64,000 bases of DNA from positions 209,505 to 273,504 of the forward strand of contig CAZFXS010000003.1 of assembly GCA_964523395.1 (NCBI GenBank), read 5' to 3'. Source of the stretch: an uncultured Chlorobiaceae bacterium (GTDB taxonomy: Bacteria > Bacteroidota > Ignavibacteria > UBA10030 > SZUA-254). The notes beneath the pieces are model-generated. The model made no database searches. It was given only the letters and a program-made list of their open reading frames with translations, and was not told where the DNA came from. A program made the position numbers and the translations under genes. Within the stretch, counting starts at the first letter, position 1; every line of letters starts with the position of its first letter. Positions 4,969 through 44,318 of this stretch are shown one piece after another.

Positions 4969-4983
4969 TGGCACGGTGGTTGC
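4969..4983 (+). promoter_or_regulatory. Sigma54 (RpoN)-type -24/-12 promoter upstream of pilin copy 1.
   Basis: TGGCAC-ggtgg-TTGCG matches the TGGCAC-N5-TTGCW consensus and lies about 80 bp upstream of the ATG at 5063. Confidence 0.6.
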
Positions 4984-5062
4984 GAAGTAAGAAGCAGATA
5001 AGATTGAAAATAAAATAATAAAAACTAATAAACCATAAACTAACCAACGTAGGAGATTTACC

Positions 5063-5452
5063 ATGGGTCAGCAACAGCTCTTATTGATCATCCTCGGCGT
5101 TATCATTGTCGGTATCGCCATAGCAGTCGGTATATCAATGTTCAGTTCCGGTAGCGTCCAGGCGAACCGTGACGGTATTGTGAACGACTTGAATAACCTC
5201 GCAGCCAATGCGTATCAGTTCAAAATTCGCCCGACAACGATGGGCGGAGGCGGCGGAACATACACAGGCGGTTCAGGCTACACCATTCCGACCAAATTAG
5301 TGACGAATGAAAACGGCAGCTATACCCGCACAAACGCAGCTCAGGCAGTTACATTCGTCGGTACGTCAGCTTCCGGATACGGAACAGTTACCGCGGTATG
5401 CGACAGCTCAGGCGCGCTTGGCAGCTTCACCTATACCGGTCAGTTCCAGTAA
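5063..5452 (+). CDS. Major pilin-like protein (type IV pilin-like, non-canonical N-terminus), copy 1.
   Basis: 129 aa. M-G-Q-Q-Q is followed by a ~22-residue hydrophobic helix (LLLIILGVIIVGIAIAVGISMF) resembling the pilin alpha1-N segment, but it lacks the leader peptide and Glu5. There is a Gly-run (MGGGGGTYTGGSG) and an S/T/G-rich globular part. The RBS aggag sits 7 nt upstream, and an in-frame TAA 9 codons upstream fixes the start. The gene lies in a T4P-like cluster. Confidence 0.6.
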   Translation: MGQQQLLLIILGVIIVGIAIAVGISMFSSGSVQANRDGIVNDLNNLAANAYQFKIRPTTMGGGGGTYTGGSGYTIPTKLVTNENGSYTRTNAAQAVTFVGTSASGYGTVTAVCDSSGALGSFTYTGQFQ

Positions 5453-5490
5453 GCCGGTTACGATTTAAGGCGAAGATCGCATAACATATT

Positions 5491-5532
5491 GCCGGCGATA
5501 GAGATTTTCTCTGTCGCCGGCTTTTTGTTTTC
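5491..5532 (+). terminator. Rho-independent terminator after pilin copy 1.
   Basis: Stem gccggcgatagag / ctctgtcgccggc (one G-U pair), followed by tttttgttttc. Confidence 0.85.
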
Positions 5533-5717
5533 AGGGCTTTTTGGATGGTAACATGTCAATTAACGACTATTCTCATTAAGCAACATCGGAAGAATATACA
5601 TGCCCTCAGGTAAAAATTACCGTCAGCAAAAGTGCAGCATTAGTTTCGTAATGTAAAAAGTGCCAAAAATCGCTAATATTAGTAAAAAAGCAAAGTTATG
5701 AGAAGATAGACCTTGGT

Positions 5718-5733
5718 TGGCACACCGGTTGCA
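5718..5733 (+). promoter_or_regulatory. Sigma54-type -24/-12 promoter upstream of pilin copy 2.
   Basis: TGGCAC-accgg-TTGCA is a perfect match to TGGCAC-N5-TTGCA, about 77 bp upstream of the ATG at 5810. Confidence 0.65.
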
Positions 5734-5809
5734 GTTATAGGGACAGTTAAATTGAAATAAAATAATAAAAACTAATAAACCATAAACTAACCAACGTAGG
5801 AGATTTACC

Positions 5810-6199
5810 ATGGGTCAGCAACAGCTCTTATTGATCATCCTCGGCGTTATCATTGTCGGTATCGCCATAGCAGTCGGTATATCAATGTTCAGTTCCGGTA
5901 GCGTCCAGGCGAACCGTGACGGTATTGTGAACGACTTGAATAACCTCGCAGCCAATGCGTATCAGTTCAAAATTCGCCCGACAACGATGGGCGGAGGCGG
6001 CGGAACATACACAGGCGGTTCAGGCTACACCATTCCGACCAAATTAGTGACGAATGAAAACGGCAGCTATACCCGCACAAACGCAGCTCAGGCAGTTACA
6101 TTCGTCGGTACGTCAGCTTCCGGATACGGAACAGTTACCGCGGTATGCGACAGCTCAGGCGCGCTTGGCAGCTTCACCTATACCGGTCAGTTCCAGTAA
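5810..6199 (+). CDS. Major pilin-like protein, copy 2 (nucleotide-identical to 5063-5452).
   Basis: The 390-nt CDS is 100% identical to copy 1 and has the same RBS region. The upstream promoter region and downstream terminator are diverged. Confidence 0.6.
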   Translation: MGQQQLLLIILGVIIVGIAIAVGISMFSSGSVQANRDGIVNDLNNLAANAYQFKIRPTTMGGGGGTYTGGSGYTIPTKLVTNENGSYTRTNAAQAVTFVGTSASGYGTVTAVCDSSGALGSFTYTGQFQ

Positions 6200-6237
6200 G
6201 CCGGTTAAGATTTAAGGCGAAGATCGCATAACATGTT

Positions 6238-6290
6238 GCCAGCGATGGAGGTTCAATCCTTCTGTCGCTGGCAATATGCTTTTATGGCAT
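6238..6290 (+). terminator. Degenerate terminator-like hairpin after pilin copy 2.
   Basis: Stem gccagcga...tcgctggc with a weak T-tract (gcttttatgg). It is homologous to the 5491-5532 terminator but diverged. Confidence 0.4.
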
Positions 6291-6299
6291 AAAGATTGT
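6285..6299 (+). promoter_or_regulatory. Possible sigma54-like element (TGGCAT-N5-TTGTA) upstream of pilin 3.
   Basis: TGGCAT-aaaga-TTGTA has GG at -24 and the correct spacing, but GT rather than GC at -12, so it is weaker. Confidence 0.3.
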
Positions 6300-6361
6300 A
6301 GTATATGTATTGACAAAACACAGAGACAGACATTAATAGTTTTCTTAACAAAGGATAGTAT

Positions 6362-6739
6362 ATGGGCACCCAACAGATGCTGTTGATAATCGTAGGCGTA
6401 ATTGTTGTCGGTATTGCAATCGCCGTTGGGTTAAGTTTATTCAATTCAACAAGTGCGGAATCCAACCGGGATGCTATTGTAAATGATATGATGAATATCA
6501 GCCAATATGCCTATCGGTATAAACTGACCCCTATTCCGTACGGTGGCGGCGGGCGAAGTTATTCGGGGTTTACGATCCCTGAAAAACTCAGTAATAATGA
6601 AAATGCCACATACATGTCTGAAGCAGGTCCGGCTTCAGTCCGGTTCATAGGAACCTCAAATTATGGTTATGGAACTGTTGCTGCGGTTCTGGACAGTTCA
6701 GGGGAGCTTTCCGCTTTTACCTTTAGCGGACAATGGTAA
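6362..6739 (+). CDS. Pilin-like protein, divergent paralog of the 5063/5810 genes.
   Basis: 125 aa. N-terminus MGTQQMLLIIVGVIVVGIAIAVGLSLF has the same M-G-x-Q-Q plus hydrophobic helix architecture. It has a Gly-run (YGGGGRSYSGFTIP) and the conserved motifs NRDxIVNDxxN and GTSxxGYGTVxAV. Confidence 0.55.
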   Translation: MGTQQMLLIIVGVIVVGIAIAVGLSLFNSTSAESNRDAIVNDMMNISQYAYRYKLTPIPYGGGGRSYSGFTIPEKLSNNENATYMSEAGPASVRFIGTSNYGYGTVAAVLDSSGELSAFTFSGQW

Positions 6740-6945
6740 TTCTTACCAGATAGTCTCCATAAAAATATAAAGTACAGGTTTCCCCCTTTTTCAAGCACTT
6801 TTACCAAGCGTACCAACCTTAAAAAGTATTGCCTGCGTCACAAGGCTGTTGCATTTCCAGGGGTCCCTCTATACATTGCCCACGTGAAAAAACGGGTAAA
6901 TTGAGATAAGATTAGGATTAATAAACAAAAGAATGGAGCATTGCA

Positions 6946-8298
6946 ATGCCAGAATTCAGAGTAGAGGGCCTTTCATCAACCGGGAAACCTGTTCAGGGTA
7001 TAATCGAGTCGGAAAATACGCGTGCGGCCAAACAGAAGGCGCAACAGATGGCAACGCAGCGGAAATTCAAACTCATCAGGATTCTTCCCAGATCAACCTT
7101 TCTTTATAAAGTACAGCGGGGAACTGATAAACCTGTTCTTGGTGAACAGAAAGCGTTTACCAAGGAAGAGGTCCAGGATGCTCTGTCGAAAATGGGTTTC
7201 AGAGTCATCAGCGTTAAGAAGAAAACGTTCGATGTAAAAGTAAAACCACCGACAACCGAAATTGTGACATTCGTACGCGTCAGTGCTGACCTAATACGTC
7301 AGAAGCTTCCGTACAATGAAATTCTCCAGCTCATGGTGAATGACATTGAAAATAAAACATTGCGCGATGCCGTCCGTGAAATCAACAATGAGTTGAAACA
7401 GGGTAAAGACAGTGAAAAGGTTTTTATCAAGCAGGAAAACGTCCTCGGGCGTTTCACCGCGCATATGCTTGGTCTTGCGTCGAAGAGCGGTAACATGGCG
7501 GATATCTATGACAGCACAGCGAAGTTTCTCGAACGCAGGGCGGAATTCCGCAAGAATCTGAAAAGCGCATTGATCATGCCGATCGTAACCTTAATCGCGC
7601 TGTTCGGCGCGTGCGTGTATTATGTCGGATTCATTTTCCCGGGTATGGCGGAAATATTTGTTCGCCTCAAAGTGGATATGAGGCAATTTCCAATGACATA
7701 TGCAACGCTGCAGATGAGTGATTTCCTGCAGGATAATATATTTATCATACTCCTGTGCATCACTATTCCTGTGGTCCTTGCGGCAAGATTTTTTACCACC
7801 GAGCGCGGAAGATTCTTCTTGGATCAGTATATCTGGAAAGTTCCGGTTATCGGGAGCCTGCTTCATAAAACTTCCATCGAAATTTTCTGCCGGGTATTCT
7901 ACGCATTGTACAGTGGTTCCGGCGAAAATATTGATGTTATCAAAATGGCAGCAGAAGCAAGCGGCAATAAATATATGGAGCATAAGGTAAAGACCATTGC
8001 TATTCCGATGATGGTGGAAAAAGGCGCAGGAATCACCGAAGCATTTGAAGCATCGGGAGTGTTTACAAAGACGGCTATTTCCCGTCTTCACTCAGGCGCA
8101 GAAACAGGTACGGTCAAGCATACGGCGCTCCAGCTTGCCGAGTATTATGAAAAAGAGACAACCTATAAGATGCGTAATGCTATCGATTTCATTCAGCTCT
8201 GGATCAGTCTGATTATCATGGTCGTATTGACAGCGTTAACGCTCGTTTCATCAGAAACGGCAACGTTCCATCCCAATACGGCGCCCGGACAGCATTAA
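6946..8298 (+). CDS. pilC: PilC/GspF-family inner-membrane platform protein of a type IV pilus / T2SS.
   Basis: 450 aa. The N-terminal cytoplasmic region (FRVEGLSSTGKPVQGIIES..AAKQKA) is typical of PilC. Two T2SS-F-like domains and three TM segments are present. The gene is adjacent to the PilB-like ATPase. Confidence 0.75.
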   Translation: MPEFRVEGLSSTGKPVQGIIESENTRAAKQKAQQMATQRKFKLIRILPRSTFLYKVQRGTDKPVLGEQKAFTKEEVQDALSKMGFRVISVKKKTFDVKVKPPTTEIVTFVRVSADLIRQKLPYNEILQLMVNDIENKTLRDAVREINNELKQGKDSEKVFIKQENVLGRFTAHMLGLASKSGNMADIYDSTAKFLERRAEFRKNLKSALIMPIVTLIALFGACVYYVGFIFPGMAEIFVRLKVDMRQFPMTYATLQMSDFLQDNIFIILLCITIPVVLAARFFTTERGRFFLDQYIWKVPVIGSLLHKTSIEIFCRVFYALYSGSGENIDVIKMAAEASGNKYMEHKVKTIAIPMMVEKGAGITEAFEASGVFTKTAISRLHSGAETGTVKHTALQLAEYYEKETTYKMRNAIDFIQLWISLIIMVVLTALTLVSSETATFHPNTAPGQH

Positions 8299-8349
8299 TA
8301 ATGAACGGGAGATAGACAGAAGAACACTTTTTATTAAGGCTGACATAGA

Positions 8350-10140
8350 ATGGCTGAAGTCGATATCACTGACAAGATAGGGTATACGCTGTTAAAGAAG
8401 GGCGTCATTGATTATGAAACCCTTGAAAAATCCCTGACGGTAAAAGAATCGGAAGACAAAAAGAACCGGAGAAATCTCGGTCAGATCTTGGTAAACGAAT
8501 TCAGCGTGGACCACGATCTTGTCTTCCGTGAGGTCGCAAACCTCTATGCTTTTCGCGAAATCTATCTCACGGATGAGATCATTGATCCTGTCAGGATAGA
8601 ATTTATCAAGAAGTATGTGGAGGCGCTTCCCGACGCGACAAAAGATCTTCTGGTGCAGATAAAGATGTTGCCGCTCCGGTTTGATGAAAAACAAACCGAT
8701 AAGCTTATCATAATTTCTGCCGATCCAACTGACCGTAATATTCCAACAATAGCGCGCAATTTTGGCGTAAAAAAGTATGAAGTCTGTTACTGTCGGCTCA
8801 AAGACCTGCAGAATCTGATTGAACAGGTTATTCCTCCTGAGAATGAGTTTCTCAAGTTGCTGGCGAATGCCGATGTTGATATTACAGCAGTCGAAGATGA
8901 AGGTGTTGTTGATGAAGAGGCTCTTGAGAGCGAAATAAGCAAAAGCGCGCTTGTTAACCTTGTTGAAGGAGCCCTGATGGAAGCGGTGCGCCAGGGCGCA
9001 AGTGACATCCATATCATTGGTAGGGAAGGCAAACGCACGGATTTCCTTTTCCGTGTCGACGGCAACTTGAAATCATGGCATATTCAGGAGAACACCATGC
9101 CAGAGGCAATTGCCGCTGTCGTCAAGGACCGTTCGAAGAATGTTGACCGTTTTGAACGCGAAATGTCCCAGGACGGTTTTATTCAGCGCATTATCGATGG
9201 ACATAATATCCGATTCAGGGTGTCCATCATGCCGATTGTGGGAACCGAGTTTAAACACAAATTTGAAAGTATCGTTATTCGTGTTCTGGATGACCGTAAG
9301 GTTATCACTGACCTGAACAAGCTGGGATTGCAGGGACCTGCAAAAGATTTCTTTTACAAAGCCATATCGAAGCCTCAGGGTATCGTTATTCTCACCGGTC
9401 CGACGGGAAGCGGAAAAAGTACGACGCTGATCGCCGCGCTTCATCAGGTTATCGACCCTACGGTTAATGTGTTAACTGTCGAAGAACCTGTGGAATATAT
9501 TATCAAAGGCGCACGGCAGTTGAAGATCGGTCACAAGATGGATTTTGACCAAGCGATTCGCGGTATCTTGAGACATGACCCTGACATTGTGCTTGTGGGT
9601 GAAATGCGCGATAAAATGACTGCAGAGATCGCGATTAAACTCGCGAATACGGGTCACCTAACATTTTCAACACTTCATACCAACGACGCTCCCAGTGCGG
9701 TCGCACGTCTCTATAAAATGGGGGTTGAACCGTTTTTGATTGCATATGCCATCAATATCATTGTTGCTCAGCGCCTTATCAGGACACTCTGCTCACTCTG
9801 TAAAAAGCCGTTGAAGTTATCAGAAAAAGAAGTTCAGATTTATCTAAAATTTGGATTCACGGAAGAAATGTTAAAAAATTCCACTTTTTTCGAACCGATT
9901 GGCTGTGAAAAATGCAATGGCGGATGGAAGGGGAGAGCTGCCATTCATGAGGCACTCTACTTTACCAGGGAAATTAAGCAGATCATTGTCGGCTCAGGCA
10001 ATGAAGTGAACGAAAACGCTATTCGTGAACAGGCGGTTAAGGATGGTATGTGGACGCTACGCCGGTCCGGCATGGAAAGAATGATGGAAGGACTAACAAC
10101 GCTGGAGGAAATTATCGCCACAACCACAGAGGATGACTAA
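8350..10140 (+). CDS. pilB: PilB/GspE-family assembly ATPase of a type IV pilus / T2SS.
   Basis: 596 aa with a T2SSE_N-like N-terminal domain and the motif ASDIHI. Walker A is LTGPTGSGKSTT. Asp and His boxes are present, and a tetracysteine motif CSLC...CEKC is at the C-terminus. Confidence 0.9.
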   Translation: MAEVDITDKIGYTLLKKGVIDYETLEKSLTVKESEDKKNRRNLGQILVNEFSVDHDLVFREVANLYAFREIYLTDEIIDPVRIEFIKKYVEALPDATKDLLVQIKMLPLRFDEKQTDKLIIISADPTDRNIPTIARNFGVKKYEVCYCRLKDLQNLIEQVIPPENEFLKLLANADVDITAVEDEGVVDEEALESEISKSALVNLVEGALMEAVRQGASDIHIIGREGKRTDFLFRVDGNLKSWHIQENTMPEAIAAVVKDRSKNVDRFEREMSQDGFIQRIIDGHNIRFRVSIMPIVGTEFKHKFESIVIRVLDDRKVITDLNKLGLQGPAKDFFYKAISKPQGIVILTGPTGSGKSTTLIAALHQVIDPTVNVLTVEEPVEYIIKGARQLKIGHKMDFDQAIRGILRHDPDIVLVGEMRDKMTAEIAIKLANTGHLTFSTLHTNDAPSAVARLYKMGVEPFLIAYAINIIVAQRLIRTLCSLCKKPLKLSEKEVQIYLKFGFTEEMLKNSTFFEPIGCEKCNGGWKGRAAIHEALYFTREIKQIIVGSGNEVNENAIREQAVKDGMWTLRRSGMERMMEGLTTLEEIIATTTEDD

Positions 10141-10233
10141 CGTGGATCAAATAATGTTGATTTTCATCACACGTGCATTGAAATTGGGGAAAATGAGTAG
10201 TAGTTTGACCACGATAATTGACGGAGAAATGGT

Positions 10234-10767
10234 ATGAGTGGTCAAATGTTGATGGTTTTGGGCGCATTGATGTTATTGTCAATGGTAAGTTTATCCATTA
10301 ACACGATGTTTATTGGAAAAACAACAACCATGCTGGATGCGGAAGCAAGTCTGAATGCTATTTCTATCGCGCAGACGATGATTGATGAGATTATGGTAAA
10401 ATCTTACGATGCAGCGACGGTATCGTCGAAAATTTTTAACGCGTCTGCGTTCACAGCTCCGGGAAGTTTGGGAGCAAACGGGACGGAAACATCGAATGTT
10501 CCTCAACCGGACACTTCCAGTCCCTTTAAATCAATCAATAATTACAATGATGTGGACGACTATCACCTCTACCGCAGGACAGTGAACACTCCACGTCTTG
10601 GCAAGTTTACCGTACGGGACAGTGTCTTCTATGTTGTGGAGTCGAATCCAGATCAAAAATCTTTTACACAGACATTCAATAAAAAGATTGTCGTTACCAT
10701 CACTCATCCCAACATGTTACGGCCTTTGCAGATTTCCGATGTTGCTGTTTACAGACGATATTTCTAG
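10234..10767 (+). CDS. Minor pilin-like / pseudopilin-like protein.
   Basis: 177 aa. N-terminus MSGQMLMVLGALMLLSMVSLS is a short polar stretch then a hydrophobic helix with no Glu5. An RBS ggag lies upstream. It sits in the cluster between pilB and the PilW/PilX-like genes. Confidence 0.45.
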   Translation: MSGQMLMVLGALMLLSMVSLSINTMFIGKTTTMLDAEASLNAISIAQTMIDEIMVKSYDAATVSSKIFNASAFTAPGSLGANGTETSNVPQPDTSSPFKSINNYNDVDDYHLYRRTVNTPRLGKFTVRDSVFYVVESNPDQKSFTQTFNKKIVVTITHPNMLRPLQISDVAVYRRYF

Positions 10768-10820
10768 GCCTGATGATATTGCAACGAGATCACAAAAGAA
10801 TTTAGTGAAGGAAGAGTCGT

Positions 10821-11384
10821 ATGGCAGTAATGATGGATATAATTGGCGCAGCAGTACTTGTCGGTATGCTAATGCTTACCGTAATGAATATAAATATCAA
10901 CATGAATTCAGAAACGTACAGAACTGCCAGTGAGTTTCATACACAAACCGAACTGATTCAGCTTGCACGAATCTTTGAGTTTGACTTATACAAGATCGGG
11001 TATGCCGTCGCAAAACCTGCTATTATGGCAGCCGATACGTCGTATCTGAAATTCAAGACGAATCTTCTCAATGTTGCAGGTGCACGGGATAGTATTGAAT
11101 ATATCCTTGGAACACCCGTCACCAGTTCAGTAAACCCCAATGATAAGCATCTCCTACGTATCGAGAATGTCTCGACAGTGTCAATTAGTTATAGTGTTAC
11201 GAAATTTAAGCTGGCGTATTACGATGCCGAAGATTCTTTGATGGCAACGCCAGTTTCGAGCACGCTTCGTGACAGCATTCGGTCAATCAGGATTCAGTTG
11301 CGGCTGGAGGGACCCACTATTATTGACGGAGAATATCCTGGCGCGTTCTATGAGAAACTAATCTATCCACGAAATTTGCAGTGA
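10821..11384 (+). CDS. Minor pilin-like protein (PilW-like).
   Basis: 187 aa with an N-terminal hydrophobic helix (IIGAAVLVGMLMLTVM). The predicted globular C-terminal region ends in a conserved-looking IRIQLRLEGP segment. Confidence 0.4.
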   Translation: MAVMMDIIGAAVLVGMLMLTVMNININMNSETYRTASEFHTQTELIQLARIFEFDLYKIGYAVAKPAIMAADTSYLKFKTNLLNVAGARDSIEYILGTPVTSSVNPNDKHLLRIENVSTVSISYSVTKFKLAYYDAEDSLMATPVSSTLRDSIRSIRIQLRLEGPTIIDGEYPGAFYEKLIYPRNLQ

Positions 11385-11393
11385 GGTGAGAGC

Positions 11394-12410
11394 ATGGGAA
11401 GAATGGCATTGATAATAGTCGTGGGCTTGTCAATAACCCTAGGTGTTGTTGGCTTCAGTCTGAACAGATCAAAGACGGGAACCGTAGAAAATGTTGCCGG
11501 TTTCCATAAGTATACAACCGCGCGCAATATAGCGCATACCGCGGTAAATATGGCGCTCCGGGCGTTGGACCGGAATGATTCGGCCTTTATTGCCAATCGT
11601 AGCTTGAACGTGAGTGCCATGGGTGGCACTGCGGCAGTATCGTTTACATATCCGAATATGTCATCGCTCGATACGATAGATCTTACAGCAACTTCAAGAT
11701 ACATGGATACGACCAAGACGATGTCATTGCGATTATACCGTAGGCCCGTCCCATTTCCCACTATTGGTCAGGCAGTCGGATTGCGGGTTCCGAATGTGGA
11801 TTTCTCGATGTCCGGTACTCCCAGCATTGACGGCCGTAATCATGATATCAACGGAAATCTGCTTGCAGCAAGTGCAAATGATAAACCGGGTGTGGGAGTC
11901 ATCTATGGTCCTGATACCACGGATGTGTTGGGATTCGCGAGCAAAATCAATGGTACGAAGGATGTGGTTTATGATACCACAATTGCTGATCCCGCGCAGT
12001 TTGTCGGAGAATACATCAACGCTGCCGATCGGGTATACACGACCGGTGTGTACGGAAGTAACATGACCTGGGGTTCGGTCACGAGCCCGCAAATCGTCTA
12101 CGCAAATGGCGATGTGAAATTCAATGGTAACATTGAGGGATGGGGAATTTTGGTCGTCAACGGGAATCTCACTCTTGCCGGCACATTTAAATTTCATGGA
12201 TTGGTTGTTGCTTATTCAGATTTTTCCATTGATGTAACATTCTCAACCGGAACCCCGGATGTTATCGGTGCGGTACTTATGGCGGGCATCGCGAACAGTG
12301 ATTACATCATGAAGGGCAATAGTAATGTCTCCTACAGCAAGGATGCGCTGGACAAAGCAAAGTTCATTAACAAGCTTCAGGTGTATCGCGTTATGAGGTG
12401 GTACGAGTAG
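11394..12410 (+). CDS. PilX-like minor pilin / pilus tip-associated protein.
   Basis: 338 aa. An N-terminal hydrophobic helix (MGRMALIIVVGLSITLGVVGF) is followed by a PilX_N-like region (ARNIAHTAVNMALRALD). The Gly-rich C-terminal beta region (GNIEGWGILVVNGNLTLAG...GLVVAY) is typical of PilX family proteins. Confidence 0.55.
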   Translation: MGRMALIIVVGLSITLGVVGFSLNRSKTGTVENVAGFHKYTTARNIAHTAVNMALRALDRNDSAFIANRSLNVSAMGGTAAVSFTYPNMSSLDTIDLTATSRYMDTTKTMSLRLYRRPVPFPTIGQAVGLRVPNVDFSMSGTPSIDGRNHDINGNLLAASANDKPGVGVIYGPDTTDVLGFASKINGTKDVVYDTTIADPAQFVGEYINAADRVYTTGVYGSNMTWGSVTSPQIVYANGDVKFNGNIEGWGILVVNGNLTLAGTFKFHGLVVAYSDFSIDVTFSTGTPDVIGAVLMAGIANSDYIMKGNSNVSYSKDALDKAKFINKLQVYRVMRWYE

Positions 12411-12434
12411 ATGAAGAAACTCTTGTTTGCTGTT

Positions 12435-12480
12435 AATACCTTGAGTGTGAAATTTAGCGTAATTCAGGGTATTTTTTTTG
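12435..12480 (+). terminator. Terminator-like hairpin plus T8 tract after the PilX-like gene.
   Basis: Imperfect stem aataccttga ... tcagggtatt (about 9 bp, 1 mismatch) is followed by tttttttt. Confidence 0.45.
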
Positions 12481-12530
12481 GAAAAAAAAGGATTTTGTGT
12501 GATTTAGGCCATATTGAATAACGAAATCTA

Positions 12531-12559
12531 TTGACAAGTGCGGAACTTTTGTATATATT
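12531..12559 (+). promoter_or_regulatory. Sigma70-type promoter (TTGACA-17 bp-TATATT) upstream of the PilT-like gene.
   Basis: TTGACA at 12531-12536, an exact 17-bp spacer, and TATATT at 12554-12559. This is about 70 bp upstream of the ATG at 12628, in an AT-rich intergenic region. Confidence 0.55.
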
Positions 12560-12627
12560 AGCCGCCGTATTTATATAGAAATATTGGCATTATTTAAAGT
12601 ATAACTCGAAATAATTGAATAATTAAC

Positions 12628-13860
12628 ATGGATGAAGCGATTTCCATAATAAAACAGATTGTCAGCAATATACCGGAAACGGCATATGGCGTAGAACGCC
12701 AGATGCTTATCGGAGACCTTGTTTCGCGGCAATCTCAGGAAGAACGGGTCATAGTCAAGAAGATGTTTGACGGTTTCCTGACACGAATGTTCGAAATATC
12801 TGCGTCTGACATTGACCTCGGCGGCTTTGGTTCCCAGGGATGTGTCTGGTATCGTATTCATGGTTCAAAGAAGCCGGATACCAGCCTGCCGACTTTCACA
12901 TTTGACGAATGCAACGTCCTGCTTCAGACCATTTTGCTGGAGCGTCAACGCCAGTTCCTCTACGAAAATAGAAATCTTGATTTTTCGTATACCGTATTTC
13001 ATCAGGATAAAATGCACCGGTTTCGTGCCGATGTGTACTTTGACCTTGACCAGATCGCGATGAACATGCGCGCGATTAATGCAGTTGTTCGTCCGTATAA
13101 GAATCTGGATTTTCATGCAAATGTTACAAAGATTGTAAGTCTTGCTCATACCAAGGAAGGTATGATTCTTGTGACCGGAATTACCGGTTCAGGAAAAAGC
13201 TCGACTCTGGACGCCATTCTTGACGCAAATAATCATAGCGTTGATGCGCACTGCGTTATCATAGCGTCGCCGATTGAGTATGTGCATAAATCCGATCGCT
13301 GCATCATACGTCATAGAGAAGTTGGCCGTGACGTTCTCTCCTTTAAAGAAGGCGCAGTTCAGGCGTTACGGCAAGATCCTGATATTATTATCATCGGCGA
13401 GTTGCGCGATCCTGACACGATTTTGACGGCATTGGAAATTACTGATAGCGGTCATAAAGTATTCTCAACGCTCCATACATCTTCTGCTGTGGAAAGTATT
13501 GACCGTATTATTGGTGAAGTCCCCCCCATTGAACAAGAGCGTGTACGTAACCGGTTGGCGGATATTATTCAGTGCGTCATTTCTCAGAAACTCGTACCAA
13601 GTCTTGATAAGAAACGTGTGCTTGCGAAAGAAGTCATGATTGCGACACCGTCTGTCAGGGCTGCAATTAAAAATAATAATACAAGTGAAATTTATCAGAT
13701 GATGTCGGAATCCGGTGACTTGGGCATGGTCACGATGGAACAGGACTTGAAGCGCCTCTATCTTGCAAAGAAGATATCGCTTGAAACAGCGATGAACTTT
13801 GCAAACAATAAACGCAGGCTGCAGCAAATTCTGAACCTGGTTCCACAAGGTGAATTATAA
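12628..13860 (+). CDS. pilT: PilT/PilU-family twitching-motility (retraction) ATPase with an N-terminal extension.
   Basis: 410 aa. Walker A is GITGSGKSST, with Asp and His boxes. The PilT signature AAIKNNNTSEIYQMMSESGDLGMVTMEQDL matches AIRNLIRE..QI.S.MQTG...GM.T. The N-terminal extension is about 100 aa. Confidence 0.8.
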   Translation: MDEAISIIKQIVSNIPETAYGVERQMLIGDLVSRQSQEERVIVKKMFDGFLTRMFEISASDIDLGGFGSQGCVWYRIHGSKKPDTSLPTFTFDECNVLLQTILLERQRQFLYENRNLDFSYTVFHQDKMHRFRADVYFDLDQIAMNMRAINAVVRPYKNLDFHANVTKIVSLAHTKEGMILVTGITGSGKSSTLDAILDANNHSVDAHCVIIASPIEYVHKSDRCIIRHREVGRDVLSFKEGAVQALRQDPDIIIIGELRDPDTILTALEITDSGHKVFSTLHTSSAVESIDRIIGEVPPIEQERVRNRLADIIQCVISQKLVPSLDKKRVLAKEVMIATPSVRAAIKNNNTSEIYQMMSESGDLGMVTMEQDLKRLYLAKKISLETAMNFANNKRRLQQILNLVPQGEL

Positions 13861-13890
13861 CCTCGAACTTTTACAAGGATAGGATACTTT

Positions 13891-15492
13891 ATGGCCTCTA
13901 TGCGAGGAAGTAAATCGAGTGCAATAGGATTGTTTGTCGACGGCTTGGAACTGAAACTTGCCAAGCTTTCCCTAAAACACGGCAAGGTGGTGATCGATGA
14001 ACTGCGCGCCGCCACGTTAGCATCGAAGCTCGAAGAGCGGCAGATTGCCAGCGTGGAAATGGAATCGCTGAGCGAAACCTCTGTGTCGTCGGAAGCATTT
14101 GCCCTGCCGGCCTCTGAACCCGATGCCGACAGCAATACTGATAATAACAGCGTTCTCCTCGGGCTGCTTGCCAAACATCCGACAAGCAGTTATGTCCTTG
14201 GGTATGCTATCTCTGAGCCGAGTATCTACTATCATACACTCGATAGTGATCACGGACTCAAAGGCAAAAAACTTAAACAGCGGGCTGTGGATGAACTGCG
14301 CAATGTGCGTTCAGTTCAACCCCCGCTTGATGCAATTGACTTTTTCCCGTCAGCGGAAAAAAATCTGGTTTGCGTTGTCCGTGAAGACGGAATGACATTA
14401 CTGCGTTCACTTGAAGAGGTGAAACCGTTTTTGGGAAAACATCTCCCCAGAATTCCCCTCATCGAAATTTCCGATGTGGCATTAATGAACCTCGCCAAGG
14501 CGAATTACGGTTTTTCGCCAGATGAAATTACCACGATTATCTATATCGGCGTTGAGTTTACCCGGCTTATTTTCATGAAAGGAACTGAATTCCTCCACTT
14601 CGCGCCGGTGTTGGGTGAGGGGTACGATTCTTCAAATATTCAAAATACCGTGTACAGCAGATTGCTGCTGGAACAAGACAACATGGGTATCCCGCGTATC
14701 GATAAAGTGCTCCTCGCGGGTGAGAGCCGAAGAATTAATTTTGACGAATTTTTGCGTGAACAACTTTCTGACGTAGAAGTACAGTATCTCCGGACTCCGG
14801 AACTCGATTCCAGTGGTTTACCGGCAGATGTGCAGGAGCAAATTCCTGAATATGCAGTTGCGATAGCGACAGCATGGAAAATGCTGGATGATGACCATCC
14901 GGCGTTCTATCCCACGAACGTGCTGCCGGAATCAGTCCGTGAAAGCCAGCGTACCTTCAAGCTTGCGTGGCACGGCTATGTTGCATTAGTCCTTGTATTT
15001 TTATCAACGCTCTTCTTTACGTCGCGATACTCGGAATTACAGCGTGAGGTAGGTGTTAAACAGGGAACACTTGATCAGCTTCAGGAGAAAGTTGCTGAGA
15101 ATGACAAATTGAAAGCCGCGATAGCATCACTTAACGATCAAATCGGCAGATATAACGTAGCCCTTGCAGTGTACGACTCGTTGGTGCCGGGCAGTGACCG
15201 ATGGAATAAATCATTGGCGCACCTTGCAAAAGGTGTCGAAGATCTCGGCGCAATCTGGATTACGGAAATGAGGGCACTTGGCGGCGGTTCCATGAGTATC
15301 CAGGGCTATGCGCTGTATCGCGCTCGTATTCCCAGAATCGCGGCACTCTTTGATAACTCAACACTGACAAAAGTCGAGGTAAAAGAGATTCGTGTCAATT
15401 CTCCTTCTGTCTATAACTTTGTTATCACGGTTCCGCCGCAGGAGCAGAAGATTGAATCGACGATTCCGCCCGCAACCGGCGGACAACAATAA
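13891..15492 (+). CDS. PilM-like actin-fold protein fused to a PilN-like module (TM helix, coiled coil, periplasmic domain).
   Basis: 533 aa. The N-terminus (SAIGLFVDGLELKLAKL) resembles the PilM IGLDIGSS start. A single TM helix (YVALVLVFLSTLFFT) near residue 355 is followed by a coiled coil (LQREVGVKQGTLDQLQEKVAENDKLKAAIASLNDQI), typical of PilN/PilO. Confidence 0.55.
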   Translation: MASMRGSKSSAIGLFVDGLELKLAKLSLKHGKVVIDELRAATLASKLEERQIASVEMESLSETSVSSEAFALPASEPDADSNTDNNSVLLGLLAKHPTSSYVLGYAISEPSIYYHTLDSDHGLKGKKLKQRAVDELRNVRSVQPPLDAIDFFPSAEKNLVCVVREDGMTLLRSLEEVKPFLGKHLPRIPLIEISDVALMNLAKANYGFSPDEITTIIYIGVEFTRLIFMKGTEFLHFAPVLGEGYDSSNIQNTVYSRLLLEQDNMGIPRIDKVLLAGESRRINFDEFLREQLSDVEVQYLRTPELDSSGLPADVQEQIPEYAVAIATAWKMLDDDHPAFYPTNVLPESVRESQRTFKLAWHGYVALVLVFLSTLFFTSRYSELQREVGVKQGTLDQLQEKVAENDKLKAAIASLNDQIGRYNVALAVYDSLVPGSDRWNKSLAHLAKGVEDLGAIWITEMRALGGGSMSIQGYALYRARIPRIAALFDNSTLTKVEVKEIRVNSPSVYNFVITVPPQEQKIESTIPPATGGQQ

Positions 15493-15520
15493 TTGTGATT
15501 AACTATTAACGGAGCGAACA

Positions 15521-16405
15521 GTGTCTTATATCATACGAAATAGCATCGTACTCGGCGTTATCCTCTTCCTTATTCTTGCAGGAGGGATATACTTTACCAT
15601 GTTTTCTCTTCCAAAAAGGATTGAGAAAACGGATGCTGAGATTAAGCGCCTTCAGGACGATTTGCAGAATACTCCCGATCTTGCAAACCAATACAATACC
15701 ACTGCTGCCTTGCTTGATGATATCAAAAAGCGGTGGGAAACGAGAAACAAGGATGTTCCGCCGAAGGACATTACGGGCGAAACGTATGGTTACTTTAACC
15801 GCACAATTGACGTGAGTGGTGAAGTAAAAATGGATATGACGTATGTCGGTCCCAAAGATTTTGGTAACTATGGCTTTAACGTGTATACCCTGAAGGGCGA
15901 AGCGCCGTTCAGCAACTTGTTTAAGTTTATCTGGTTCACAGAAAACGGCCGCCGTCTCTTTAAAATATCCAACCTGGCACTCCGCGGGTATGAATCTAAA
16001 GTCGCGGAAACAGGAGAAACAAAAATCCTCGTTCTCTATGATATGGAGTTGCAGGCATATTATTCCTCCATGCCGGAGCTCAACAATGCACCTGGTCAAT
16101 TGAATGTCGTGCCGACCACGCTGACAGGCAATCCGTTCTATCCGCTTATTCTGCGCGAAATACCTCCTCCGCAGGCGGATGAAATTGAAATTGAACGGTC
16201 TGATTTAAAAGCGGTTATTCCGGGCAAAGCGTTCATTTTAGATCAGTTCCAGAAATCCAGAATTCTTGAAGAAGGTGATCCGGTGTACCTTGGATACGTG
16301 ACAAAGATTTATCCGAACGAAGGAAAGATAGAGTGTTTATTAAATAAAGGCGGTGTCGCCGAACGTTTCGAGCTTACTATACGTGTTGGTCAACCGATTA
16401 AATAG
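15521..16405 (+). CDS. PilO-like protein (N-terminal TM plus coiled coil), possibly with a PilP-like C-terminal beta domain.
   Basis: 294 aa. TM helix IVLGVILFLILAGGIYFTMF, then coiled coil (IEKTDAEIKRLQDDLQ). A beta-rich C-terminal domain follows. The gene lies between the PilM/N-like gene and the secretin. Confidence 0.45.
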   Translation: MSYIIRNSIVLGVILFLILAGGIYFTMFSLPKRIEKTDAEIKRLQDDLQNTPDLANQYNTTAALLDDIKKRWETRNKDVPPKDITGETYGYFNRTIDVSGEVKMDMTYVGPKDFGNYGFNVYTLKGEAPFSNLFKFIWFTENGRRLFKISNLALRGYESKVAETGETKILVLYDMELQAYYSSMPELNNAPGQLNVVPTTLTGNPFYPLILREIPPPQADEIEIERSDLKAVIPGKAFILDQFQKSRILEEGDPVYLGYVTKIYPNEGKIECLLNKGGVAERFELTIRVGQPIK

Positions 16406-16424
16406 CACAATTTACGGAGCTTCC

Positions 16425-17672
16425 ATGAACATCAAATATCTGTTGCTGTTGGTTGTAAGTCTTCTCTTTGTCCAGAGCGTTTCTTCCCAAACCAAGGAAC
16501 AGCGGTTACGGACAAAAGGGTATGTAAATCCCCAGGAAATCGTATCGCTTGATTCCACAACCAGAATGGATCAGGCATTCCTTGTCATTAATGAATTGAG
16601 CAAACAGTTTGCGGGAAAGATTCTTATCGATCTCGAGAAACGCCGTGGCCCCATTGGTGTTTATATTGTGAACCAGCACTGGCGGGATGCGCTTGACATG
16701 ATATTGTCACATAATGGCCTCACTGCCGTCGAAGAATCAGATTTCATCCGGATCATGGCAGCGGGTGCAGCGCCGGTTATGACCGGTTTGGGTTCAGGAG
16801 GCGAGATGAAGGAACCTCCCCCGACACTTGAAAGTCAGGATGTCAAAATTTCCGCGGTATTCTTTTCAACGAACGTCGATAAACTGCAGGACTACGGTAT
16901 CAGCTGGGATTTCTTCCGTTCCAAACCGAAGGAACCGGGCATTTCAGGGTATTTAAGCGCAGGGATTGTCCGTGGCGATACATTGTCGTTGATTCCCCCG
17001 ACATCTCCGCAACCGTCGCTGAACAGAGCTCTTGGCGTTATCTCGTCACCGCCGGAATTTAAATTTGCCAACATCGACGCGTTGGTGAAGTTCTTCGGTT
17101 CAAATCAGCTTGGTGAAGTTATCACCAGTCCGGAAGTTGTTGTCCGGAACGGAAAAAAAGGTAAAATCCAGGTTGGTAAAAATATCTTTATAACCACAAG
17201 AGATATCGCCGGTAACCCCATCGCACAGCAGGTTCAAACCGGAACCATCATTGACGTAAGTCCGATGATTTACACTCAAAACGATACCAATTTTATTTAC
17301 CTCGATCTGAACATCGAACAAAGCGATGCGAATACAGGTCAAACAGGCGTGGAAATTAACAAAGCATCTGTCACCACGCACGCGTTGCTCTACGACGGTG
17401 AAGAGAGTGCTATCGGTGGACTCTACACGACTTCTGAAACCCAGGTCAGGGAAGGAATTCCTGTCCTGAAGGATTTGCCGGGATGGTTCTTTGGCTTGCG
17501 CTATCTCTTTGGTTCTGAAAGCACCACCAAGACCAAGAATGAACTGATTGTGCTTCTCAAGGCTGAATTGTTGCATCCCATCAGGGATCGTATTGCCAAT
17601 CCCACGATGAAGCAGGAACAGCTCTTGAATGAAAAACGGAATGAATTCAAACAGGAATTTGAGAAGAAGTAA
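16425..17672 (+). CDS. pilQ: Secretin (PilQ/GspD family), short form.
   Basis: Start re-set to ATG 16425 (signal peptide MNIKYLLLLVVSLLFVQSVSSQ; RBS ggag 7 nt upstream). The C-terminal secretin core includes GIPVLKDLPGWFFGLRYLFG. About 415 aa. Confidence 0.8.
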   Translation: MNIKYLLLLVVSLLFVQSVSSQTKEQRLRTKGYVNPQEIVSLDSTTRMDQAFLVINELSKQFAGKILIDLEKRRGPIGVYIVNQHWRDALDMILSHNGLTAVEESDFIRIMAAGAAPVMTGLGSGGEMKEPPPTLESQDVKISAVFFSTNVDKLQDYGISWDFFRSKPKEPGISGYLSAGIVRGDTLSLIPPTSPQPSLNRALGVISSPPEFKFANIDALVKFFGSNQLGEVITSPEVVVRNGKKGKIQVGKNIFITTRDIAGNPIAQQVQTGTIIDVSPMIYTQNDTNFIYLDLNIEQSDANTGQTGVEINKASVTTHALLYDGEESAIGGLYTTSETQVREGIPVLKDLPGWFFGLRYLFGSESTTKTKNELIVLLKAELLHPIRDRIANPTMKQEQLLNEKRNEFKQEFEKK

Positions 17673-17735
17673 GCGATGATGCATACTCACGGATTTGAAG
17701 ACGAACAATTACGTTTATCCCAAAGGATTGTACAT

Positions 17736-19739
17736 ATGAACTCAAAATATATACTTCTGTTCTTAATCGCATGTGTGTCTCTCGGTCTCTGGAGTTGCGA
17801 AGACCTCCCGATAGAAGGGGGAGGGATTGTGCAGGTGACCGGAACGGTGACTGAACTCGGTACCGGACTCGCAGTCCAGAACGCGACGGTTTATCTGACT
17901 GTCGGCGGCAACGTGGACTCGGTTGTTACCGGAACAGGCGGGAGCTTCACCTTCGAAGCAGATTTTAACGCTCTGGAGAATGGCGGGGCGACCATTACAG
18001 TGAGAAAGACCGGATTTGAGACAAAGGTGGTCAGTATACCGAATGCCGGCGCTACGTCATTCAGCATCAATCTTCAGGCCGACCTTTCGACGTCAGCACT
18101 GATTGTTGGTACGTTACGCGACAGCACCACGTTATATCCGCTCCGTAATGGTCAGGTCATTCTTACACTTCCCGGTGTTGTTGACCAATTTATTACAGCT
18201 GTTGACGGGGCGTTCCGTCTTACTGCTGATCTTGTCGATCGGGATTCATTACCTGTCACTTTAACAATGGTCAAGGACGGTTATAAGACAAAGTCATTGA
18301 CAGTTGTTGTCTATAAAGGCCAGACGAGAAACTTAAATAATGTCTTGTTGCAAGTGGATGCGGGATCGACCGTAGCACAGGTTCTCGGCCGTGTTTTGGA
18401 TAATACCAACCGCCTTCCGGTGAATAACGCGACAGTGGTTATCTCCACGCCGATTTTTACGGACAGTATGGTTACTTCCGGAGATGGTTCGTTTACGTTC
18501 ACTGTTAACTTACAGGGACTCTCCTCGGTTGCCGGACAAGTAAAAGTTTCCAAGAGCGGGTATCGGTCGAACAATTTCTCTTTTAATGTGAATGCCGGTG
18601 CAACATTCGCACAGGATGTGACTATCACACGCGATACAACGACCGGCGTGCCACGCGATAGTTCAGGAACGGGAAATGCTCATTCTATTGCATTGGTGAG
18701 TGTCAGTGCCAGAGAAATATCTGTTTATGGTGTCGGTGGAACCGAGTCCTCGATTCTGGTTTGGGAAGTTCGGGATTCTTTAGGGTTCCCGATTGATATC
18801 GACCATCGCGATACGGTGAACTTCTCAATTGTCGGCACACCTGCAGGAGGTGTTGGTGGAGCCTATGTATCTCCTGCAACGGTGATGACAAACGTATCGG
18901 GAAGAGTCGCGACCACCGTAAACAGCGGAACGATTTCAGGCGTCATGCAGTTTATTGCATCGTTACGTCGCGAGTCAGATGGCGTGGTCATTCAATCTAC
19001 ACCTGTTATTATCACAGTGAATGCAGGATTACCTGACCAGGCGCATTTTACGATTGCTCCGGTTGAATTTAATTTCCCCGGACTCGATTGGCTCGGTCGT
19101 ATCGACCCGATCACTGTTCAGGTGGGTGATAAATACAGTAACCCGGTAAAAACGAATACCGCAGTGTACTTTAACACGACCGGCGGTATTATCAACGCCT
19201 CAGGCTTTACCAATGCTGATGGACAGGATGTAGTTGACCTTCATAGCGGCAATCCCCGTCCGAGCGATCCATTCTTTGGTCCGGGATTTGCGTGGGTGAG
19301 AGCCTCAACTGTTGGTGAAGCCGGAAGCACTGTCCAGGATTCGGTACTTATACTGTTCTCGGGAACATCCAGGATATCAAATGTCAGTCCGTCGTCATTT
19401 ACTGTGAACGCTGCCAGCGGACATACATCAGGACCGATCAGCTTTACTGTATCAGACGCGAATGGAAATCCGCTTTCCCAGGGAACGCGCATTCAGGTTC
19501 AGCTGCAATATACACCTCCGCCGCTGAGTTCAGTAAACCTGACAACCACCGGAGATGTGGATGTTACACTCGGTGATACTCAGGTAAGCGGGCCTGGAAC
19601 AACACAGTTCTCCTTCCAGGTTGTAGATCAGAGTATTCCGGTATTAGATAGTACAATTCCTGCAACGGTAACGATTAAGGTAACCAGCCGCAACGGTAAT
19701 CCTCCGATTGTTCAGATGTCCGGAACGATTGGTCCGTAA
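17736..19739 (+). CDS. Large lipoprotein with three CarboxypepD_reg-like repeats followed by Ig-like (Big) domains; function unknown, last gene of the pilus cluster.
   Basis: Start re-set to ATG 17736 (MNSKYILLFLIACVSLGLWSC, lipobox Cys). Repeated modules GTVxxxxTGLxVxNATVxL appear three times. The C-terminal half is beta-rich. Confidence 0.55.
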   Translation: MNSKYILLFLIACVSLGLWSCEDLPIEGGGIVQVTGTVTELGTGLAVQNATVYLTVGGNVDSVVTGTGGSFTFEADFNALENGGATITVRKTGFETKVVSIPNAGATSFSINLQADLSTSALIVGTLRDSTTLYPLRNGQVILTLPGVVDQFITAVDGAFRLTADLVDRDSLPVTLTMVKDGYKTKSLTVVVYKGQTRNLNNVLLQVDAGSTVAQVLGRVLDNTNRLPVNNATVVISTPIFTDSMVTSGDGSFTFTVNLQGLSSVAGQVKVSKSGYRSNNFSFNVNAGATFAQDVTITRDTTTGVPRDSSGTGNAHSIALVSVSAREISVYGVGGTESSILVWEVRDSLGFPIDIDHRDTVNFSIVGTPAGGVGGAYVSPATVMTNVSGRVATTVNSGTISGVMQFIASLRRESDGVVIQSTPVIITVNAGLPDQAHFTIAPVEFNFPGLDWLGRIDPITVQVGDKYSNPVKTNTAVYFNTTGGIINASGFTNADGQDVVDLHSGNPRPSDPFFGPGFAWVRASTVGEAGSTVQDSVLILFSGTSRISNVSPSSFTVNAASGHTSGPISFTVSDANGNPLSQGTRIQVQLQYTPPPLSSVNLTTTGDVDVTLGDTQVSGPGTTQFSFQVVDQSIPVLDSTIPATVTIKVTSRNGNPPIVQMSGTIGP

Positions 19740-19762
19740 TATTGGCAATCGCAATCAATGCA

Positions 19763-19802
19763 AAACGCCATCCCGGTTTTCCCGGGATGGCGTTTGTATT
19801 TT
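19763..19802. terminator. Bidirectional rho-independent terminator between the convergent pilus cluster and hemL.
   Basis: A 14-bp stem aaacgccatcccgg / ccgggatggcgttt with loop ttttc. T-tracts lie on both sides (A-rich 5' side, gtattttt 3' side). Confidence 0.85.
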
Positions 19803-43386: not shown

Positions 43387-43818
43387 ATGATTACAGAATT
43401 CGGGCGAGTTTTCATTTTCTTTATTATAGGCGCAGTCTTTGTCGCCATAGGTTTGATTGCCGCATGGTTTATCCGTCCGAGCAGAGCATATCCCAGCAAA
43501 CTGACAACATATGAGTGCGGCGAGGAGCCGGTAGGTAACTCGTGGGTGAAGTTTAATATCCGTTTTTATGTTGTCGCGCTGATTTTCCTCATTTTTGAAG
43601 TTGAAACAGTCTTTCTTTTTCCCTGGGCTTTAGTATACCAGAAACTTGGTGTATTTGCATTTGCAGAAATGCTGATATTTCTTGTTATCCTGTTCGTCGG
43701 GTATGCTTATGTATGGGTGAAAGGTGATTTGGATTGGGACAGGCCCGAGCCTTTCATTCCCGTGGTAAAAAGCCCTACGCAGTCTAAACAACTTACAACC
43801 GAAGAAGCGACAGTATAG
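43387..43818 (+). CDS. nuoA: NADH-quinone oxidoreductase subunit A.
   Basis: 143 aa with 3 TM helices; the conserved YECGEEP...FEVE motif is present. Confidence 0.85.
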
Positions 43819-43825
43819 AGATCAT

Positions 43826-44317: not shown

Positions 44318-44318
44318 T

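Follow-up and report, generated by a model that had tools for sequence, protein, structure and literature searches.

A probable type IVa-like pilus locus of an Ignavibacteria-class bacterium with candidate pilins without a class III signal peptide

The stretch of DNA analysed here, referred to below as the window, comprises 64,000 nucleotides (64 kb) of contig CAZFXS010000003.1 (assembly GCA_964523395.1) from an uncultured Chlorobiaceae bacterium of the class Ignavibacteria, and the system in question is a cluster of 13 co-directional open reading frames (ORFs), separated by short gaps, on its forward strand at 4969-19802. An earlier note, made from the letters of the sequence, had described a type IV pilus-like cluster of about 15 kb on one strand, and all 13 ORFs were found at the place and in the order that it gave: three pilin genes, pilC, pilB, three minor-pilin candidates (mp1, mp2 and mp3), pilT, a PilM-PilN fusion (PilMN), a gene for a protein of 294 amino acids (aa), a secretin gene and a lipoprotein gene (Table 1). 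Two points of layout to which the note had drawn attention, the pilin genes just upstream of pilC-pilB and pilC preceding pilB, are likewise borne out by the ORF map. Taken as a whole, and as far as the sequence allows this to be judged, the cluster is probably a functional machine, namely a sigma-54-driven type IVa-like pilus locus of an Ignavibacteria-class bacterium. The machine is ordinary, whereas its pilins break the rule by which the superfamily is defined, and they do so across a bacterial class. The features that make up this rule are a class III signal peptide, cleavage and N-methylation by a prepilin peptidase of the A24 family, and a glutamate at position 5 (Glu5), and they define pili, the pseudopili of type II secretion systems (T2SS), competence pili and archaella.

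Table 1. Coordinates of the genes and other features of the cluster, numbered from the first letter of the window (TM, transmembrane helix)
Feature	Position	Strand	Remarks
Sigma-54-type -24/-12 element (TGGCACGGTGGTTGC)	4969-4983	+	94 nt upstream of pilA1
pilA1, candidate major pilin, 129 aa	5063-5452	+	N-terminus MGQQQLLLIILGV..., without leader or Glu5
Terminator-like hairpin after pilA1	5491-5521	+	14-bp stem and T tract
Sigma-54-type element (TGGCACACCGGTTGC)	5718-5732	+	Exact; 92 nt upstream of pilA2
pilA2, exact copy of pilA1	5810-6199	+	Tandem duplication
Terminator-like hairpin after pilA2	6232-6278	+	20-pair stem
pilA3, second pilin paralogue, 125 aa	6362-6739	+	N-terminus MGTQQMLLIIVGV...; 57% identical to pilA1
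PilC platform protein	6946-8298	+	Two T2SSF domains, 3 TM; Pfam PF00482 T2SSF 1.2e-28, two stretches
PilB assembly ATPase	8350-10140	+	Pfam T2SSE 4e-99; TIGR02538 416 bits
mp1, minor-pilin candidate, 177 aa	10234-10767	+	N-terminal hydrophobic helix; conserved place between pilB and pilT
mp2, minor-pilin candidate, 187 aa	10821-11384	+	N-terminal hydrophobic helix; invariant Asp6
mp3, largest minor-pilin or tip-protein candidate, 338 aa	11394-12410	+	N-terminus MG(R/K)MALII...
PilT-type retraction ATPase, 410 aa	12628-13860	+	N-terminal extension of ~45 aa; TIGR01420 326 bits
PilM-PilN fusion (PilMN), 533 aa	13891-15492	+	Actin-like PilM domain ~1-340, TM 358-376, coiled coil, periplasmic PilN domain
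Bitopic protein, 294 aa	15521-16405	+	TM 9-27, coiled coil, C-terminal beta-rich part; positional PilO/PilP candidate
Short secretin (PilQ/GspD family)	16425-17672	+	PF00263 2.5e-28; mechanical ORF 16353-17672
Lipoprotein, 667 aa	17736-19739	+	Lipobox LWSC; CarboxypepD_reg-like beta-sandwich domains; internal Met start at 17736
Terminator-like hairpin closing the cluster	19763-19795	+	14-bp stem

For the comparison with relatives, one genome per species was scanned with PilMN, which gave 209 matching stretches, and the best 80 of these, 48-74% identical, were analysed. The PilMN homologues are labelled as metagenome-assembled genomes (MAGs) of Ignavibacteria, Ignavibacteriales, Chlorobiaceae or Bacteroidota. 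Based on tblastn, the order pilA(x1-4)-pilC-pilB-mp1-3-pilT-pilMN-294aa-pilQ-lipoprotein is common to the loci long enough to judge, apart from the variants listed below; the pilin genes lie directly upstream of pilC-pilB wherever this region was captured, every locus has its PilT gene mid-cluster, and hemL and hemB often come next on the opposite strand. Given that the order recurs in 80 independent genomes, a chance layout is excluded. A sub-clade (L060 1853-4124, L061 1854-4099 and L077 1087-3358) carries, immediately upstream of the pilin genes, a gene for a CheY-like receiver together with one for a second PilB-like ATPase of about 611 aa that is 37-48% identical to PilB.

The pilin ORFs open at the first start codon after a stop, with AGGAG 8 nt upstream, and the encoded protein begins MGQQQLLLIILGVIIVGIAIAVG. 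We tallied the N-termini of 111 ORFs of this family, drawn from the window and the 80 other genomes. About 105 of the 111 start with MG(Q/S/T)QQ and continue directly into the hydrophobic helix; no K or R is present within residues 1-6 of any of them, 109 are free of D and E within residues 1-12, and the Gln immediately preceding the hydrophobic run occupies position 5 in 105 of 109. The same start was seen in about 100 of the best 150 library representatives, each of which stands for one cluster at 50% identity. Searches of Pfam with 37 family members, at expect values (E) up to 10, returned no N_methyl, Class_IIIsignal, T2SSG or pilin family, and the pilins had no match at all in NCBIfam. 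Since the starts are of the MG(Q/S/T)QQ type, the N-termini uncharged and matches to prepilin hidden Markov models (HMMs) missing, these pilins lack the class III signal peptide, which is defined by a basic leader, by Gly at -1 and a hydrophobic residue at +1, and by Glu at +5. The earlier note had called them non-canonical, and in the absence of a leader, a basic residue, Glu5 and a prepilin HMM match they are. The family is very large (2962 matches in one search; at least 2137 clusters at 50% identity), yet all its members are annotated as "hypothetical", with neither a Pfam or NCBIfam domain nor a functional name. A JGI label, "UPF0333 family", on one member was discarded as unsupported by Pfam at E 10. 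The description of the locus as a candidate undescribed type IV filament variant thus holds, with a pilin family of this size unnamed and its pilins unlike those of the type IVa pili (T4aP) described so far.

An AlphaFold model built from 37 sequences (predicted local distance difference test score, pLDDT, 87.9) shows an N-terminal helix of 53 residues that leads into an antiparallel sheet of four strands, and the fold so predicted is the bacterial type IV pilin fold. Geobacter PilA is the only solved pilin with a sequence-level alignment to this family; in this weak alignment, the Gly residues of the helix fall at canonical pilin helix-breaker positions. Proteins that lack the N-terminal helix also carry the globular part, or head domain (approximately residues 30-128): it follows an ordinary Sec signal peptide in 2-5 tandem repeats or lies within proteins of 1400-2300 aa. 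The helix-less head-domain proteins are P0245, P0246, P0247, P0249, P0269, P0270 and P0387, and the start of P0269 resembles the middle of mp3.

No A24 peptidase was identified in the cluster or elsewhere in the window when every ORF with multiple TM was run against Pfam; these ORFs are accounted for by TerC, a cytochrome c assembly protein, Nuo subunits and a glycosyltransferase. In the related loci, 80 stretches that add up to about 1.35 Mb and reach about 10 kb to either side of the cluster, no ORF combined three or more TM with a GxGD-type motif, and the few multi-TM ORFs there resemble, judged from their N-terminal sequences, the TerC-family ORF of the window. The earlier claim that the locus has no A24/PilD gene is therefore sustained, for the window and for flanks of about 10 kb in 80 genomes. 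A regular-expression search of the same 80 loci for canonical prepilin N-termini gave only one spurious antisense ORF. Cultured relatives are Melioribacter roseus and Ignavibacterium album. In the complete genome of M. roseus, pilD was reported as not found (M. roseus genome paper), as would be expected if M. roseus has this system, and there is no mention of pili in the I. album genome paper. Neither Ignavibacterium nor Melioribacter is listed in the searchable text of the supplements of Denise et al. 2019 (PMC6668835), a silence to be taken as weak evidence. The searchable text of that survey of type IV filaments names no Ignavibacteria systems, and its detection models need a recognisable major pilin (PMC6668835). 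Our literature search found no description of leaderless bacterial type IV pilins. Leaderless pilins probably explain the pilin and prepilin-peptidase genes reported missing in Ignavibacteria.

The first two pilin genes lie in a tandem duplication of about 500 bp, in which 5008-5505 is identical to 5755-6252. Of the three major pilins proposed earlier, two are thus distinct genes, but the third is a 100% identical duplicate and not a separate pilin. A near-identical metagenome contig from a sister strain (L001) has a single copy of the duplicated pilin, and other species have one to four tandem copies; given both the single-copy sister strain and the up to four copies elsewhere, the copy number varies naturally, and the changes suggest recurrent amplification or gene conversion. 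In L026, three identical major-pilin copies are present at 73-1456. The possibility that the duplication is an assembly artefact was considered and rejected, as each copy has its own promoter and terminator and two to four tandem copies exist in other species.

Sigma-54 control of pilA is a known pattern in Pseudomonas, Myxococcus and Geobacter. In the window, the exact motif TGGCAC-N5-TTGC occurs twice, against 0.19 matches expected in 64 kb, and both occurrences stand before pilins. When up to one mismatch was allowed within 200 nt upstream, such an element was present at 32 of 107 related pilin genes versus about 0.8 expected, an enrichment of approximately 40-fold, and mostly 85-115 nt before the start codon. 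Among the proteins of the window, none was recognised as an enhancer-binding protein. The one to four tandem copies, each with a sigma-54 promoter and a terminator, suggest that these pilins are the bulk structural subunit.

The assignments of PilC, PilB, PilT and the secretin that had been made from the sequence alone were upheld by Pfam and NCBIfam HMM searches. For PilB, the best NCBIfam model is the PilB model itself (TIGR02538, cut-off 675), while the GspE model gives 375 bits; moreover, the protein matches the PilB structures of M. xanthus and Geobacter over its full length (3.6e-87), whereas GspE aligned only via the C-terminal ATPase part. It has a Walker A motif at residue 350 and a tetracysteine motif (C481/C484/C519/C522), as in extension ATPases. 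Residues 9-160 of PilB (8350-8830) show weak matches to an MshE-related cyclic di-GMP-binding motif (E 0.005) and to the MshEN domain (E 0.007), which hints at a possible control of extension by cyclic di-GMP. The top NCBIfam matches of PilC are all PilC models, each below its equivalog cut-off, and PilT scores above the cut-off of its family (319.1 bits for TIGR01420), with an AIRNLIRE motif that is degenerate and unconserved. In the 217-bp gap before pilT lies the region's best sigma-70-like site (12531-12559, TTGACA-17-TATATT, 11/12), a possible internal promoter for the half of the cluster from pilT to the lipoprotein gene; such sites overall occur at chance count. The secretin likely starts at Met25 (16425), where a signal peptide is found, and is about 415 aa long with no AMIN domains detected. 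It scores 88 bits against the GspD model and 85 bits against the PilQ model (TIGR02517 and TIGR02515), both below the cut-offs, and its top match in the PDB is P. aeruginosa PilQ (2e-9).

Single-sequence searches gave weak hints for PilMN, namely PilN (0.011) and the Amuc_1101 PilM-like family (3e-5). When 14 homologues were combined into a profile, M. xanthus PilN was matched over residues 340-479 (E 3.6e-4). An AlphaFold model from 47 homologues (pLDDT 78.8) has a long coiled coil and, in the periplasm, a small alpha/beta domain; its cytoplasmic domain is structurally closest to PilM proteins, with FtsA next, and not to GspL. The PilM-PilN-like fusion read from the sequence is therefore real, by both the profile match to PilN and the PilM-like structural matches. 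GspL has the same architecture, with an actin-like domain in the cytoplasm, a single TM and a ferredoxin-like domain in the periplasm on one polypeptide, and in function amounts to PilM plus PilN; PilMN differs from it in that the cytoplasmic part is nearest to PilM and then FtsA and the periplasmic part matches PilN. The 294-aa protein encoded next was retained as 79 ORFs across the related loci. No Pfam or NCBIfam match was obtained for it, and its top profile match against the PDB is the DotF C-terminus, a weak one (E 0.06). Its earlier label as PilO/PilP-like is consistent with the expected position and an N-terminal hydrophobic helix, but the sequence searches lend it no support. The large lipoprotein named as the last gene is confirmed by its lipobox after the internal Met, and its gene lies directly 3' of the secretin gene in most related loci; it is a candidate pilotin, secretin partner or surface component. 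Acidic residues after the lipidated Cys are associated with surface export of lipoproteins in Bacteroidetes. In the present lipoprotein (17736-17810), the lipidated Cys is followed by acidic residues at +2 and +3 (C-E-D).

Between pilB and pilT, mp1 has the family consensus M-N-T-G-Q-M-L-L (M-x-x-G-Q-M-L-L), in which residues 2-4 are unlike those of the pilins. Gln5 nevertheless precedes the hydrophobic run in 35 of 37 scored mp1 ORFs, and the residue before this Gln is N or Y in 5 of 37 orthologues. An hhalign comparison of mp1 with the pilin family aligned 20 N-terminal residues with a probability of 23%. The only family match was a weak one of mp1 to PilV (E 0.01), mp2 and mp3 having none, and profile searches of all three against PDB sequences gave nothing usable. 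Where three minor pilins, one of them PilX-like, had been proposed, the N-terminal helices and the position speak for the proposal, while the minor-pilin and PilX labels are without family or PDB support. The mp genes are absent from the pilB-pilT gap in L013-L016 and inverted in L026 (5604-8042) and L027 (4424-6861), where they lie on the minus strand; from their arrangement, mp1-3 appear to act as a movable module in an otherwise fixed cluster.

Compared with T4aP of the M. xanthus, P. aeruginosa and T. thermophilus type, the locus shares PilB-, PilT- and PilC-type proteins, PilM/PilN, a secretin and the pilin fold. It differs in pilins that have no leader, no Gly-1/Phe+1 context, no Glu5 and no D-region disulfide, in the lack of pilD in or near the locus, in the fusion of PilM with PilN, in pilC before pilB, in a PilO/PilP pair that is not recognisable, in the short secretin and in the conserved 667-aa lipoprotein after it. 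T4aP are typically multi-locus according to Denise et al. 2019 (PMC6668835). From the T2SS (Gsp), the cluster is set apart by the missing match to GspG-K, by the presence of PilT and by GspE and GspF models that score below the PilB and PilC models. T2SS are not known to have PilT. A canonical T2SS, which the earlier note had named as the outcome that would count against it, is thus not what was found: the cluster encodes PilT, its PilB aligns with PilB of M. xanthus and Geobacter from end to end, and no GspG-K pseudopilins were found.

A closer parallel is the "T2SS" of Cytophaga hutchinsonii (CHU_3191-3201), which shares with the present cluster the Fibrobacteres-Chlorobi-Bacteroidetes (FCB) group, a single locus, the secretin, ATPase and platform, divergent small pilin-like proteins, and PilM/N/O/P-like proteins missed by ordinary searches. 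The Cytophaga cluster has an A24 peptidase (CHU_3197) and a GspG recognisable by BLAST (CHU_3198), and PilT is not listed for it (PMC5553014); by this published description, the present locus differs in having PilT, in lacking an A24 peptidase and a recognisable GspG, and in its gene order. Bacteroidetes "T2SS" group phylogenetically with T4aP, as stated by Denise et al. 2019 (PMC6668835). Archaeal type IV pilins, those processed by EppA-type peptidases and others, resemble the present ones in having Gln at the very start of the hydrophobic helix and no Glu5. However, the ATPases, platform, PilM/N and secretin here are of the bacterial T4aP type, Class_IIIsignal is unmatched, the archaellum FlaI model matches the ATPases of the cluster at only 1e-10, and archaeal prepilins, unlike the pilins here, have charged leaders several residues long.

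Filament formation, retraction and independence from a peptidase are inferred here from the sequences, as are the functions given to mp1-3, to the 294-aa protein and to the lipoprotein. Sigma-54-type promoters would drive abundant pilin synthesis from one to several tandem genes, each closed by a strong hairpin. PilB and PilC would then pull the 125-129-aa pilins from the inner membrane into a polymerised surface filament, while the helix-anchored mp1-3 would probably prime, cap or tip the fibre; PilT would depolymerise it, with retraction as the consequence, and PilMN and the 294-aa protein would join the cytoplasmic motor to the secretin. If the machine is functional, we lean, by a little, towards the view that no prepilin-peptidase cleavage or N-methylation is needed and that processing goes no further than loss of the formyl group or of the Met. 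On this view, the primary product, M1-G2-Q3-Q4-Q5 followed by the alpha1 helix, would already be the mature pilin, with Gln5 replacing Glu5. That the translated product is the mature pilin is the simplest reading, since Gln5 is fixed relative to Met1 in two families and stands at the place of the canonical Glu5. Maturation without endoproteolysis is favoured by the invariant MG start, the fixed Gln5 and the uncharged N-terminus, as well as by the residues other than Gly before Gln in some mp1 and by the missing peptidase.

Several observations weigh against this reading of the machine and its pilins. None of PilB, PilC and PilQ reaches its NCBIfam equivalog cut-off, neither sequence nor structure lends support to the minor-pilin and PilO/P assignments, and the invariant acidic residue of mp2 is at position 6 rather than 5. 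With respect to the pilins themselves, G2-Q3, and G4-Q5 in most mp1, look like a G|Q cleavage site, and the alignment with Geobacter PilA (E 0.08) pairs G17 of the family with the canonical G14, which places the canonical +1 at Q4 and not at M1. An unlinked A24 peptidase may also be encoded elsewhere in the genome, given that the search covered the window and the flanks of the clusters. In EppA substrates of archaea, Gln is found at +1, and a pyroglutamate N-terminus has been reported for a Methanococcus pilin. The strongest competing explanation is that an unlinked A24 peptidase cleaves after Gly (MG|QQQ... in the pilins and MxxG|Q... in mp1), which would leave an extremely short leader; the N-terminal Gln of the mature protein may then cyclise to pyroglutamate and make Glu5 unnecessary. 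The G-Q dipeptide, which the pilins and most mp1 share at a differing distance from Met1, fits this explanation, as does the weak Geobacter PilA alignment, by which Q3 is no more than one or two residues away from the canonical +1. Prepilin peptidases are, moreover, often encoded apart from their system or shared between systems, according to Denise et al. 2019 (PMC6668835), and one Ignavibacteriales MAG was reported to have a canonical pilin verified by Pilfind (PMC7399161), from which it follows that some member of the group processes class III signals. On the other hand, the "leader" would be a single uncharged Met of constant length in more than 100 genes and about 100 representative clusters, the residue before Gln is N or Y in the 5 mp1 orthologues mentioned above and not a Gly, Ala or Ser at -1, mp2 has no Gly near its N-terminus, and +1 of mp3 would be Arg or Lys. 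With no A24 gene in the window or, across 80 species, in the neighbourhood of the cluster, and pilD reported as not found in M. roseus, we regard cleavage of such a short leader as a possibility to be taken seriously, though one that we do not favour.

A different function for the whole cluster has also to be weighed, that of a T2SS-like secretion machine of the Cytophaga type, in which a periplasmic pseudopilus pushes folded exoproteins through the short secretin. The PilM-PilN fusion is GspL-like, the secretin scores slightly higher on GspD than on PilQ, and Bacteroidetes relatives own a T4aP-derived secretion system with divergent pseudopilins and PilM/N/O/P-like proteins (PMC5553014; PMC6668835). 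Yet PilT, above its family cut-off, lies mid-cluster in every locus, the PilB model beats GspE with a full-length alignment to PilB structures only, the A24 and GspG of the Cytophaga cluster were not found here, and tandem major-pilin copies with their own promoter and terminator point to a bulk subunit. Since PilT is present and conserved, a secretion role is unlikely. Still further from the evidence is the notion that the pilin-like genes do not encode fibre subunits at all but small proteins anchored in the membrane with some other function, placed upstream by coincidence, and that the real, canonical pilins and the peptidase are encoded elsewhere. The occurrence of the head domain, without helix, in Sec-secreted and very large proteins would be compatible with it, and so would the canonical pilin reported in the Ignavibacteriales MAG (PMC7399161). 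However, these genes lie directly upstream of pilC-pilB in every captured locus, the Gly residues of the helix are at the canonical helix-breaker positions, and the genes are under sigma-54-type control as for known pilA; fold, position and regulation together make this explanation very improbable.

If the translated pilins are indeed the mature ones, the scope could extend to the whole class Ignavibacteria (at least 209 species), which would build retractile pili from pilins translated in their mature form, without peptidase or N-methylation and with Gln5 for Glu5. We put this broader proposal forward tentatively, as more doubtful than not. Should it be true, this would be the first type IV filament lineage without an A24 peptidase and a class III signal peptide, and a natural experiment on the roles of the leader and of Glu5 in membrane insertion, orientation, charge neutralisation in the fibre core and the gating of assembly. 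Such a lineage would also allow a very large family, for which neither Pfam nor NCBIfam has a model at present, to be named. Detection tools such as PilFind and MacSyFinder need a recognisable pilin, and the lineage would be a sign that systems of poorly studied phyla are counted too low when the distribution of pili is surveyed.

The cluster is flanked upstream by a gene for a PMT_2/TPR membrane glycosyltransferase and downstream, on the opposite strand, by hemL, hemB and a monogalactosyldiacylglycerol (MGDG)-synthase-like gene. Given that these flanking genes are unrelated, it is considered a discrete unit, the ends of which coincide with the sigma-54-type element before pilA1 and the last hairpin. 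In some Pseudomonas, pilin glycosyltransferases adjoin pilA. The glycosyltransferase of the window (2303-4756; 817 aa, PMT_2, 10 TM, C-terminal TPR) adjoins the pilin genes upstream, and a PMT_2 glycosyltransferase near the pilins was seen in two other loci only (L031 and L034, on the opposite strand); its candidacy as a pilin glycosylase was dropped, as it is non-syntenic in most loci. The lineage had earlier been taken as one of the FCB group bearing a type IX secretion system (T9SS), with which the T9SS C-terminal sorting domains on three proteins encoded in the window are consistent. The remaining window (19819-39919 on the minus strand, 43387-53935 on the plus strand, and 424-2142 and 56572-59835) holds tetrapyrrole genes, an apparent nuo operon and the T9SS-domain proteins. 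The tetrapyrrole-biosynthesis genes include the hemL and hemB mentioned above, a cytochrome c assembly gene is located at 39041-39919, and the apparent nuo (NADH dehydrogenase) operon includes the ORF at 45880-47037, the one scanned, which matches Pfam NADHdh.

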